The position numbers and the translations under genes were made by a program. DNA of 64,000 nucleotides from Octopus vulgaris (lineage: Eukaryota): assembly GCA_951406725.2 (NCBI GenBank), contig OX597832.1, forward strand, positions 62,062,001-62,126,000, written 5' to 3'. The notes under the pieces are model-generated. The model saw nothing but the letters and a program-made list of their open reading frames with translations. It was not told where the DNA came from and ran no database searches. Of this stretch, positions 10,032-45,412 are shown one piece after another. Every line of letters starts with the position of its first letter. Position 1 is the first letter of the stretch.

Positions 10032-10809
10032 GGCGTACATATATGTGGTAAGGTGTTGTAGTAATTTATACATTCCTTGTCGAGCTAGCAAAACATGTTC
10101 GATTATAGATTTGACAGAGTAGCGAATCACATGATCAATGGAGGTTGTTGTAGTCGTTTGCTACGTTGTGATATTTCCTCTGTCCCTACCAACAGACAAT
10201 GAGATCGACTGGACCGTGTCCCCTTTGCTTCTATTAGGCTCGACATATATACATAGTCACTGCTGAGACGCTTCCACAAAATAAAAAAAGAAAAGCCGTT
10301 AGAAAACCGATTATAGCAGCGACTCCATCTAAGAATATCTGAAGAAGGAATATTATTCCGAAATATCATATCAGACTATGGATGGCTCAATTACCACAGG
10401 TATATAGCCCATTGTCTGTATTATAGTGCATTGTTGTACCATTCAAAGCTTTTTATTCTTTATATAGATAGTGTTGGACTTTGCTGTGTCTCATTAAACT
10501 AGACTTGTTTTACGAATGTGAAGGTAGCGACCCCTAATGTCATTGATGCCTCTATTATACTATTATAGTTTTATTAATGAGAAGAGGAGCTGGGGACAAA
10601 GAGATTGTGACCGACAGAGAAGAAAAGGAGAGAGAGGGGGAAGAAAGAAAGAAAGATAAAGCGTGTAGAAAAGAGAAAGAAAGGAATAGGTTTAAATCTG
10701 TGATAATTATTGGATGCAAAAGATCCTAAAAAGACAGAGCAGGAGACATTGGTGAAAGTGAGAGAAAATAGGGAATGGCGCGCATTTAAAGAGAGATCAA
10801 ATAAGCGAG

Positions 10810-12714: not shown

Positions 12715-12972
12715 TATAGTGTTGGTGCATAATTATTGCGGCTATTTTTCAACAAATTCTATTCAACAAAAACAATAACAACATGTAACAAAAGCATATT
12801 TAAATGATTATTGCGGAGCGTGTTCATCATCTGCTTCAATTACTGCTACTCATTTGCTTGGCAGACGGTCAGACTCACATTTAAAGATGTTTTTGTTAAA
12901 TATTGTTATTGTTTTTCTTGAATAAAATTCGCTGAAAAAAAAAAGCCGTAATAATTGTGCACCTACCCAATA
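12715..12972. mobile_element. Mariner-type MITE with ~70-bp imperfect TIRs
   Basis: TATAGTGTTGGTGCATAATTATTGCGGC.. and ..GCCGTAATAATTGTGCACCTACCCAATA resemble Hsmar1/Made1-type TIRs, with TA ends. Confidence 0.8.
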
Positions 12973-12989
12973 CAAACATATATTATCTT

Positions 12990-13151
12990 CTCTCTTTATT
13001 TTCTCTCCTTGTTTCTATCTGTGTTCCTTTCAGTGGAAGAGCGTAGGCTCGAAACGTTAAAGAATTGTTCACTTCCCGAGCGTTAAACTAATACGTCTGT
13101 TCGTTGTCTACACCACCTGTCTTCGTCTTTTGTTTTTTTTGTGAATTCTCC
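12990..13151 (+). mobile_element. Solo PLE terminal repeat (pLTR-like) with hammerhead-like motif at 13027-13062
   Basis: Homologous to 14680-14844; ends at a TA/TACA microsatellite. Confidence 0.75.
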
Positions 13152-13172
13152 ATATATACATACATACATATA

Positions 13173-13830: not shown

Positions 13831-13871
<41 letters not shown>

Positions 13872-14842
13872 CGCAGTAATTGTGGATAATAGAAAATGCA
13901 ATAACCTACTAGCGGTTTTGATAAGGTTGATGAGAAACGTGTCCCACAACTGCGACTCAACGGAATTGGAGAAACATATACAACTCTCATTACATTGCAT
14001 GCAGTTCTCTGGGTACAACCAAGGAAACCGCAGCGTGGGGTACAAAGAAGCCATGATAAAATCTAAGACCCGCATAGAGAGTGACGCAAATGAAAGCTGT
14101 CCGCTATACAAGAGTGAATCATGCCATCGAATGGAGTGAACAAAGAAGATATGTAAGGACAACTCATGTTTTGTCGATGCTTCACTTGGAGGCGAACTAG
14201 CGTAGCATTTCAGAAAAGCCTTACATAAGATAAATCTACGGATAGAAAGGCCTGGAATTCTTATAAAATCCTTGAATTGTAGAACCTATCCATTTGGAAA
14301 GACTCCCTTTACGTATAATAAGAGTACAATGTATTGAATAAGCCCAGCGATAAACTGTAAAACTAGGAATGTAGTCTAAAGCATAAGGTGTACAGAGCGG
14401 CTGTGAAGAAACAGGATAACAACTTAAGTTGAAGAGACAGCCTGTAGCATAGGTGAGAGGACAAGTCAACACTGGCGCGAACGTAAGAAGGAGAGAAGTT
14501 CGTCAGTGCTATACCGATATGCAAAATCAGAAGGCGAGGGCTAGGTAGATTATATGGATGTTATAATATAGATTGCGCCTCGACAGAAGACGTGAACAGA
14601 GTAGTAACACCCCTCGCCTCGAAATGTGACGGCTAAAGACAGAAAAAAGAATAAATAAATAAAAGAAATGGGTACAAACTACACACATTTTTCTCTCTCC
14701 TTGTTTTTTCTCTGTGTCCCTTTCTGTAGAAGAGCGTAGGCTCGAAACGTAAAAGACTTTATCTATTCCTGTGCGTTATACTAATACATCTGTTTGTTTT
14801 CTACACCACCTGTTTTCGTCTTTTGTATTTTTCGTAAACTCT

Positions 14843-14844
<2 letters not shown>
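13872..14844 (+). mobile_element. 5'-truncated, decayed Penelope-like element: RT thumb, linker, GIY-YIG endonuclease, pLTR
   Basis: ORF 13882-14139 ([19 protein letters not shown]) then FVDASLGGELA, ERPGILIK..YPF, NCKTRNVV*SIRC and *VEETACSIGERTSQH, i.e. a decayed VVY-I-C..YVGET..ER..EH GIY-YIG motif. Flanked by (TA)n on both sides. Confidence 0.8.
14720..14755 (+). ncRNA. Minimal type-I hammerhead-like motif, variant core CUGUAGA plus extra A
   Basis: CTTT-CTGTAGA-A-GAGC-GTAG-GCTC-GAAA-CG-TA-AAAG: stem I CUUU/AAAG, stem II GAGC/GCUC, palindromic ACGU stem III. Confidence 0.6.
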
Positions 14845-14888
<44 letters not shown>

Positions 14889-14890
<2 letters not shown>

Positions 14891-15393
14891 AGAGTTTACG
14901 AAAAATACAAAAGACGAAAACAGGTGGTGTAGAAAACAAACAGATGTATTAGTATAACGCTTTTGCGTTTCGAGCCTACGCTCTTCTACAGAAAGGGACA
15001 CAGAGAAAAAACAAGGAGAGAGAAAAATGTGTGTCGTACCCATTTCTTTATTTATTTATTCTTTTTTCTGTCTTTAGCCGTCACATTTCGAGGCGAGGGG
15101 TGTTACTACTCTGTTCACGTCTTCTGTCGAGGCGCAATCTATATTATAACATCCATATAATCTACCTAGCCCTCGCCTTCTGATTTTGCATATCGGTATA
15201 GCACTGACGAACTTCTCTCCTTACGTTCGCGCCAGTGTTGACTTGTCCTCTCACCTATGCTACAGGCTGTCTCTTCAACTTACGTTGTTATCCTGTTTCT
15301 TCACAGCCGCTCTGTACACCTTATGCTTTAGACTACATTCCTAGTTTTACAGTTTATCGCTGGGCTTATTCAATACATTGTACTCTTATTATA
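14889..15393 (-). mobile_element. Inverted copy of the PLE 3' ~530 bp, tail-to-tail across (TA)n
   Basis: Near-identical reverse complement of 14314-14844 with a ~18-bp deletion near 14960; spacer 14845-14888 is pure (TA)n. Confidence 0.95.
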
Positions 15394-39064: not shown

Positions 39065-39432
39065 TTTTTGGATTTGGTTTGCAAGATTCTTTATGTGAGT
39101 TCGTGTGTTGAAGCATATTTTGTTGTGTCTGAGGGGAGTCAATCTCTATTAGTGCCTTATAAGTAACCACACTCACCGGTAAAATTTCCACTTATTTCTT
39201 TTTTCTTTTTCTGAAATTTTCGTTGCGTCTTGCAAACTTTTCAATTGTTTTGACTCTGTCCGTTATTTACACTGCGTTCCTTTGTTGTTTGTTTAACGGA
39301 CACAGTCAAAACTATGGAAAAGGTTGCAAGACGCAACGAAAATTTTAGAAAAAGAAAAAAGAAGTGTAAATTTTACCGGTGAGTGTAAATTATAAGGCAC
39401 CAAAAGAGAATGACTCTCCCTAGACGCAACAG
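39065..39432. mobile_element. 368-bp hairpin element with 13-bp TSD and a hammerhead-like motif in each arm
   Basis: AAATTTAGATTCA at 39052-39064 and 39433-39445; inverted arms 39121-39265 and 39294-39431. Confidence 0.85.
39312..39348 (+). ncRNA. Minimal hammerhead-like motif, U3-A8 core variant plus extra G
   Basis: CTA-TGGAAAA-G-GTTGC-AAGAC-GCAAC-GAAA-AT-TT-TAG; sister copies (39211-39247 minus, 32529-32565) have core TTGAAAA. Confidence 0.55.
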
Positions 39433-44657: not shown

Positions 44658-45239
44658 TTTTAGACAGATATCTACCTAATTGCATTCACGCATGCTCACC
44701 TACCTTCCCACGTTCATACATATATGTAAATGCTTAAGGGAAAATCTGGATAAGCTTTCTTCTCAAAAACGCCATTACAACTACTTGAATGCAACAATAA
44801 AAACATGCAAGACATTTCCCAAGTTTAATGTGTGACATAGCTTTCAAGATCTACATTCCAGCGCTGGTGCTTTGTATCATATTTAGAAACCAGCTCCTTG
44901 AATACTTCATGAATACTTCAAATAATTACAAAACGGAAGACCACCTGTCTCTTTATCTGCGTACTACCTCCCTCCCTCCCTACTCACCCACCAACATACC
45001 TACCTACCTACAAGAAATCAGTCAACTGACATGCACATTACAAATGCAATCGCTATGTGCAGCCGTAAAATATGCAAGACCTTTATCACGTTTAAAATGT
45101 GACATTGTTTTCGTTATCTACATTCCAAAGATGGAGGGAATTTTTTTATCTTTCTTAGAAACCAGCTCCTTGCTCAGAAAAAATAATTCAAATAAACATA
45201 CATACATACATATCTATCATTCGCCATGATAGATCGCTA

Positions 45240-45412
45240 GCCACTACACATTCTTTATTTTCTCTCCTTGTTTCTTTCTGTGTTCCCTTCTGTGGAAGAG
45301 CGTAGGCTCGAAATGTTAAAGACTTTTACACTTCCCGAGCGGTAAACTAATACATCTGTTTGTTATTTACACCATCTGTCTTCGTTTTTTGGGGGTTTTT
45401 TTGTGAATTCTC
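45240..45412 (+). mobile_element. Solo PLE terminal repeat with hammerhead-like motif at 45286-45321
   Basis: Homologous to 14680-14844 and 12990-13151; ends at (TACA)n. Confidence 0.75.

Follow-up and report, generated by a model that had tools for sequence, protein, structure and literature searches.

A terminal-repeat hammerhead with U at core position 6 in a young, high-copy, Neptune-like Penelope lineage

The stretch of DNA analysed here (64,000 nucleotides; the window) carries hammerhead-like motifs with U at core position 6, a position that is normally A. An earlier note on this DNA had proposed a family-level A6U variant of a hammerhead in the terminal repeat of a PLE. The locus raises the questions of whether U6 characterizes a family or a few decayed copies, which element owns the motif, and whether such a hammerhead still cuts. 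The motif is the terminal-repeat hammerhead of a young, high-copy, Neptune-like Penelope lineage, with U6 throughout all sampled subfamilies.

The 19-mer running from G8 to A15.1 (G8-A9-A-GAGC-GUAG-GCUC-GAAA) occurs exactly four times in the window, at 13036(+), 14729(+), 14968(-) and 45295(+), against an expectation of 0 from 100 shuffles of the window. As the earlier note had described, this string is invariant in four copies, position 6 is U in all of them, and position 7 is variable (A or G); the predicted cut, 14751/14752, is in the correct register. The copies are not equal, however. Only the one at 14724-14755 is otherwise intact, and it agrees with the published consensus for minimal PLE hammerheads (PMC4209133) everywhere save position 6. 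The other three are damaged in the core or helix III (Table 1). Nor do the four copies represent four insertions: 14724(+) and 14991(-) belong to the two halves of a single inverted duplication of roughly 530 bp around a (TA)n tract (14314-14844 and 14891-15393). Thus, the window holds three independent insertions.

The inverted duplication (14314-15393) extends past the stub into approximately 365 bp of flanking DNA, as though the inserted copy had folded back and copied its neighbour. An imperfect inverted repeat of another repeat family (12715-12972, 73% over 267 nt) lies just 5' of the first stub, and at 10335-10375(+) another family is represented by a minimal hammerhead with a canonical core (CUGAAGA) and a 5-bp helix II. 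Rfam returned no hammerhead match for the window copy. It likewise missed a canonical sister copy, so this null is uninformative. In an Rfam scan of the whole window, hammerheads were absent among the best 150 of 238 weak matches.

Table 1. Features of the window and the basis on which they were assigned.
Feature	Positions	Strand	Basis
Independent pLTR stub, G7/U17 subfamily, ends approximate	12988..13152	+	
Hammerhead with U6 and private U4A in that stub (copy at 13031 reads CAGUGGA)	13027-13062	+	
Remnant of RT-thumb and GIY-YIG, decayed (several stops), from an A-rich PLE family	13870..14568	+	46% aa to L076 ORF
5'-truncated pLTR stub, Neptune-like U6 family, A7 subfamily, ending at the (TA)n target	14678..14844	+	blastn against full element L116; the family's upstream sequence ends at ~14678
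Intact minimal type I hammerhead-like motif with U6	14720..14755	+	sequence, motif scan, published PLE consensus
Helix I of intact copy	14720-14723/14752-14755	+	
Core C3-A9 of intact copy	14724-14730	+	
Extra A of intact copy	14731		
Helix II and GUAG loop of intact copy	14732-14743	+	
GAAA of intact copy	14744-14747		
Palindromic ACGU of intact copy	14747-14750	+	
Position 17 of intact copy	14751		
(TA)n microsatellite in the middle of the inverted duplication; target of the insertion	14845..14890	.	sequence; full elements likewise end in (TA)n
Inverted duplicate of 14314-14844 (stub plus flank)	14891..15393	-	self-blast, pairwise alignment
Hammerhead of the inverted duplicate (copy at 14991), U16.1C, 18-nt deletion after helix I	14960-14995	-	
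Independent pLTR stub, G7/U17 subfamily, beginning at the family's common 5' boundary, ends approximate	45219..45412	+	
Hammerhead with U6 and C15.2U in that stub (copy at 45290)	45286-45321	+	

Position 6 was surveyed in the window's own genome (2.8 Gb, G000). The 16-mer formed by helix II plus GAAA had 24,016 exact matches; the reversed control had 0. With the 5' core added to this pattern, position 6 was U in 19,249 of 20,091 copies (96%), A in 267 and C or G in 575; by eye, G6 occurred in 9 of the first 100 matches listed. A motif-independent sample comprised 71 copies, from the first 70 listed of 17,331 matches to a downstream-flank pattern. The core was present in 64 of these, and all 64 had U6. 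Position 7 of these cores was A in 22, U in 22, G in 10 and C in 10, and position 17 was A or U in 62 (A 48, U 14, C 1, G 1). C3, U4, G5, G8, A9, G12, A13, A14 and A15.1-U16.1 each had the consensus letter in 60-64 of the 64 cores. Finally, 40 loci located via the endonuclease protein yielded 38 distinct motifs, all with U6.

The family-level reading of A6U is borne out by these three samples (19,249/20,091, 64/64 and 38/38). Canonical CUGA in young copies had been named in advance as the observation that would count against it; instead, U6 was found in all 38 protein-anchored hammerheads and in both pLTRs of five two-pLTR elements. Some of the A6 copies inspected (n = 30) were point changes dispersed across U6 subfamilies; the others belonged to the oldest subfamily, in which the first 100 of 892 matches, read by eye, had 81 U, 11 C, 7 A and 1 G at position 6. 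When helix II was left unconstrained, the same lineage accounted for 98 of the first 100 matches listed. U6 copies with an altered helix II (U-U mismatch, UUCG loop) made up 2 of 100 listed matches (L211:5016(+) and L212:1549(-)). Searches that fix CUGANGA overlook about 20,000 hammerhead-type motifs of this family.

The owning element was identified from full-length copies. The proposed location in PLE terminal repeats was confirmed by five elements with the U6 hammerhead in both pLTRs (L116, L117, L125, L132 and L135); the window holds stubs only. L116, L117, L125 and L135 are 98.2-99.6% alike, and their pLTR pairs are 97.0-99.8% alike. L116 has a single intact ORF of 1,075 aa with an RT and, at its C-terminus, a GIY-YIG domain; in Pfam, RVT_1 scored above the cut-off (E 1.5e-7) and GIY-YIG below it (E 0.0074). 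The ORF begins about 730 nt 3' of the predicted cut. The endonuclease is preceded by a C-x4-C-x2-C linker, which fits CX2-5CxxC, a Neptune feature that is also common to Nematis (PMC8557442). Full U6 elements end in (TA)n. The linker and the (TA)n preference point to a Neptune-like family, the linker being shared with Nematis. In an indirect comparison, 39-52% aa matches were obtained to endonuclease pieces lying 5' of Acropora-Neptune-like hammerhead motifs. Long U6 copies lead upstream to a C-rich endonuclease, P0001, for which there were 16,490 first-look candidates; the 150 that were scored were 90-100% identical.

The hammerhead of this family has a 4-bp helix I, a 4-bp helix II with a predicted pairing probability of 0.68-1.0, an extra A after position 9 and, as the remnant of helix III, a palindromic ACGU. 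With its U6, it is filed as a derived variant of the minimal type I PLE hammerhead and not as a canonical member. Short tandem hammerhead repeats, the mark of non-LTR retrozymes, were found as one five-unit array (L317), and most copies are single stubs. That array (G000:C8:18599500-18604500) has five near-identical hammerheads ~492 bp apart in units that span -97 to about +395 relative to the cut; it is retrozyme-like, with a junction that differs from the cut site. Similar junctions occur in L231, L235, L318 and L324. Full-length U6 elements also stand head-to-tail with a 4.47-kb period (L319/L320, G000:C6:117.39-117.40 Mb). The family was further detected in sequencing runs labelled as four organisms, and a contig of organism B matched exactly over 62 nt across the U6 core. 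Contig variant tables lacked the known position-7 variation and so were not used for position 6.

The earlier note had pointed to one copy lying directly downstream of decayed RT-thumb and GIY-YIG coding sequence. This remnant is real, but it comes from a different PLE family, an A-rich one represented by L076 (1,312-codon frame). The U6 family ORF had no tblastn match in the window at E<0.01 and is merely 21-27% identical to the A-rich ORF, and a U6 hammerhead lies downstream of 0/18 other relatives of the decayed ORF. These results rule out the remnant as the U6 family's coding region. The window stub is without the family's own upstream sequence and is joined to foreign DNA at about 14678. 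Based on this junction and the 0/18 relatives, the adjacency of remnant and hammerhead is a nested insertion. Elsewhere in the window, 39065-39142(-) contains a 26-codon match to the N-terminus of the A-rich ORF (65%, E 6e-4) and probably derives from the pLTR/tail of an A-rich element. The published U3-A8 core was seen in hammerheads at L089:8241(-), L089:8603(-) and L077:729(+), two of them 362 bp apart.

Sister lineages have the same helix II stem with other loops (6,576 matches) and share downstream pLTR sequence with the U6 family. Position 6 was A in all 63 flank-anchored sister cores. The sister loops are variable, and the outer pair of helix I is G-C, as compared with C-G in the U6 family. 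Because A6 is found in 63/63 sister cores and in the published rows available (PMC4209133), U6 is most simply read as a derived change at the root of the GUAG-loop lineage or close to it. Trees of the pLTR (~170-190 nt), in one of which A6 rows were purposely over-sampled, resolved the subfamily ladder but neither the basal A6/U6 order nor the direction of U4C.

Other core changes occur in related lineages. In the triloop sister (L337-L406, G000:C1, drawn from 12,065 flank-pattern matches), 44 of 63 sampled cores carry U4C (CCGACGA), a majority that a CUG-anchored search overlooked. These copies are less diverged than canonical ones (median 4.1% vs 7.7%). U4C is also a viroid variant with reduced activity in vitro (PMC3088659). 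In the young A-rich family (L062-L095, e.g. L076:1976(-) and 6574(-)), 27 of 29 hammerheads have A9C, and helix III is a non-palindromic GAAC; L067, an older relative, retains A9. Within the families sampled, the presence of A6U, U4C and A9C, each uncompensated, in three abundant lineages suggests that selection for fast cleavage has been relaxed or reversed. In metagenomes, U6 had 22 matches. Eighteen are Acropora-type-like and look like scattered point changes, with canonical partners in 3 loci, although a U6 subfamily may be among them; 3 are GC-rich, without helix I, and are put down to chance. The remaining one, L420, is a lone minimal hammerhead with U6 on an unrelated contig; both its loop and its helix I are distinct.

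Conservation of the fold was evaluated on 215 collected copies, of which 193 were hand-sorted into eight groups. Seven groups (9-54 members, 3-15% diverged) gave consensuses. Of the 36 hammerhead columns between the helix I strands, 2 (N7 and N17) differ among these, as compared with 41 of 97 ungapped columns in the flanks (Fisher p 2e-5). Core positions other than 6, 7 and 17 are invariant, and all seven consensuses keep G8 and G12, the catalytic guanines of the hammerhead. At the flank rate, fixation of the ten other core positions has a chance of ~0.004. Positions 7 and 17 are those left free in the published PLE consensus (PMC4209133). Since only these vary, the hammerhead fold appears to be under selection in the U6 family. 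The apparent invariance is inflated, as many consensus copies came from hammerhead-anchored patterns and subfamilies were assigned by hand; the flank-anchored check covered the younger subfamilies. One caveat on this reading is the GUAG loop, as it too is fixed in the seven consensuses although catalysis by itself does not demand it; downstream pLTR segments are also conserved. Protein binding, as opposed to catalysis, could account for the conservation.

The 5' ends of genomic copies were considered as a sign of cleavage and rejected, as neither lineage has a pile-up at the cut. One of the 71 flank-anchored U6 copies begins at the predicted cut, 2 begin 3-7 nt upstream and 4 downstream; 64 read through the motif, and 48 begin 61-140 nt upstream. 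Of 55 copies reaching into the 5' UTR (four being units of one array), none begins at the cut and 36 have 5' ends beyond -200. In the A6 sister, 0/70 copies end at the predicted cut. Thus, read-through is not specific to U6, and templates are uncut or re-ligated in both lineages. The zone 60-140 nt upstream of the cut, in which 5' ends pile up (48/71 in L247-L316; 43/70 in the sister, L337-L406), lies near an ATG-containing motif in both lineages; the pile-up possibly reflects the RNA start or microhomology with (TA)n.

Folding predictions distinguish U6 from A6. The predicted probability of G5-C15.2 pairing was 0.86-0.98 in six of seven subfamilies with U6 and 0.30 in the G7 subfamily; with A6, it was 0.00-0.23. 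According to these predictions, U6 would additionally allow U4-G5-U6 to pair with the helix III ACG, in competition with the palindromic dimer. Two other roles for the altered core were rejected. CUGUAG would resemble a splice acceptor after a pyrimidine tract in the A7 subfamily only, and no GT-AG joint was found in contigs. Repair of U6 by RNA editing is excluded, as A-to-I editing cannot turn U into A.

The data to be explained are that U6 is fixed, the remaining core is conserved, the elements kept multiplying and nearly all inserts carry an uncut motif. We hold at about even confidence that the motif is a slow ribozyme, with putative cleavage only when it is paired with a second copy or aided by an element protein. 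The element RNA would start about 60-140 nt 5' of the cut, from the pLTR. U6 would pair the core strand with the helix III ACG (G5-C15.2, U6-A15.1), keeping the monomer off. Reverse transcription would begin about 110 nt 3' of the cut, into (TA)n targets, and copying would mostly pass through uncut or re-ligated RNA, leaving stubs of roughly 200 bp like those in the window. Cleavage would be rare and protein- or dimer-dependent, and its low level may be tolerated or even advantageous, as cutting would ruin the template. The natural A6C variant retains slow activity and prefers Mn2+ (PMC3088659, PMC7151607). In a type III hammerhead, mutants of the CUGA turn had low activity, and second mutations failed to rescue them (PMC9901934). 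Cutting by the Anolis PLE hammerhead requires the PLE protein, and insertion in vitro can proceed without this hammerhead (PMC11167929). The weak predicted off-state pairing in the G7 subfamily (0.30) counts against a slow, protein-assisted ribozyme. Overall, conservation favours a retained hammerhead fold, and published mutagenesis favours slow cleavage.

A broader proposal, which we put forward tentatively, is that selection has acted on PLEs in this genome to weaken the ribozyme they carry. Three independent lineages would each have fixed a different uncompensated core change (A6U, U4C or A9C) in subfamilies that are young and abundant, the catalytic fold being otherwise retained, and the hammerhead would have become either a switch gated by protein or an RNA scaffold that does not cut.

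It is possible, though rather doubtful, that catalysis is lost and that the hammerhead-shaped RNA is kept as a structural signal, either as a binding or positioning site for the RT/endonuclease or as protection of the RNA end. The 64/71 copies that read through the motif agree with this, as does the tolerance of different uncompensated changes in three lineages (A6U; U4C, 44/63; A9C, 27/29). Similarly, catalytic mutants of the Anolis element had no effect on insertion in vitro (PMC11167929), and Naiads multiply without canonical hammerheads (PMC8557442). Yet each lineage has one deviation, with ten other core positions fixed (chance ~0.004 at the flank rate), and the sole drifting positions are those that are free in the catalytic fold.

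We consider it unlikely that U6 is compensated, for example by the fixed GUAG loop contacting the helix I bulge, in a normally active ribozyme whose cut RNA is re-ligated to circles, so that inserts look uncut. The loop is indeed fixed in seven consensuses while those of the A6 sisters vary, and the 36/55 full-length copies with 5' ends beyond -200, well upstream of the proposed RNA start, are what a longer-than-unit or circular template would give; a circle model has been proposed for PLEs (PMC4209133). However, tandem genomic copies (L319/L320) account for longer-than-unit templates without circles, a rarer U6 form has a UUCG loop and a helix II U-U mismatch (2/100 listed), and CUGA-turn mutants were not rescued pairwise in the type III hammerhead (PMC9901934). 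That the hammerhead is a functionless relic hitchhiking with the element is very improbable: one master lineage could have given rise to all of the intact-looking features, and hammerheads have been suggested to be PLE parasites (PMC8557442), but flanks changed at 41/97 columns and the hammerhead only at N7 and N17.

The literature searched contained no natural A6U hammerhead, no measurement of A6U activity and, in hammerhead-PLE papers, zero occurrences of the term A6U. Lunse 2017, figures and preprint supplements lay outside that search, and a prior description is possible there. As a family-wide variant of a known PLE hammerhead, natural A6U is thus apparently new, although it may have been described earlier. 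Lunse reportedly found in 2017 that small PLE hammerhead variants cleave as dimers. According to a review, PLE hammerheads whose stem III is short and palindromic act as dimers (PMC6765202). The role of PLE hammerheads and their need to cut are an open question (PMC4209133, PMC8557442, PMC11167929). The genome provides natural matched pairs, close lineages with A6 vs U6 and U4 vs C4 that all transpose at high copy number, which makes this question testable with 50-nt RNAs. The value of the locus lies in these pairs more than in the window stub.

With the minimal type I hammerheads of metazoan PLEs (Cervera and de la Pena 2014, PMC4209133), the U6 family has in common a U-rich 5' flank, a short helix I, an extra nucleotide between 9 and 10.1, G10.1-C11.1, GAAA, a palindromic C-G at 15.2/16.2, H17 and location in both pLTRs. 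In the Acropora digitifera Neptune motif, the letters of the helix II 3' strand and of helix III are the same as in the U6 family (PMC4209133). The difference is position 6, which is A in the consensus and Figure S3 rows of that paper. Its search descriptor fixed the core, as its authors admit, and the sole core variant discussed there is a compensated U3-A8. The Anolis Poseidon element PAc (Frangieh 2024, PMC11167929) likewise has a pLTR hammerhead 5' of an internal start of reverse transcription, uncut RNA as the main template and no RNA ends seen at the cut, which in the U6 family is judged from genomic copies. In contrast to the U6 family, in which the ORF lies ~730 nt after the cut and protein assistance is inferred, the PAc hammerhead has a canonical core and overlaps the ORF start. 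The phage Bcep176 hammerhead (Perreault 2011, PMC3088659; Naghdi 2020, PMC7151607) also has a natural substitution at position 6, A6C, with the rest of the core kept. It is a single phage sequence, whereas U6 is fixed in >19,000 retrotransposon copies across an age series.
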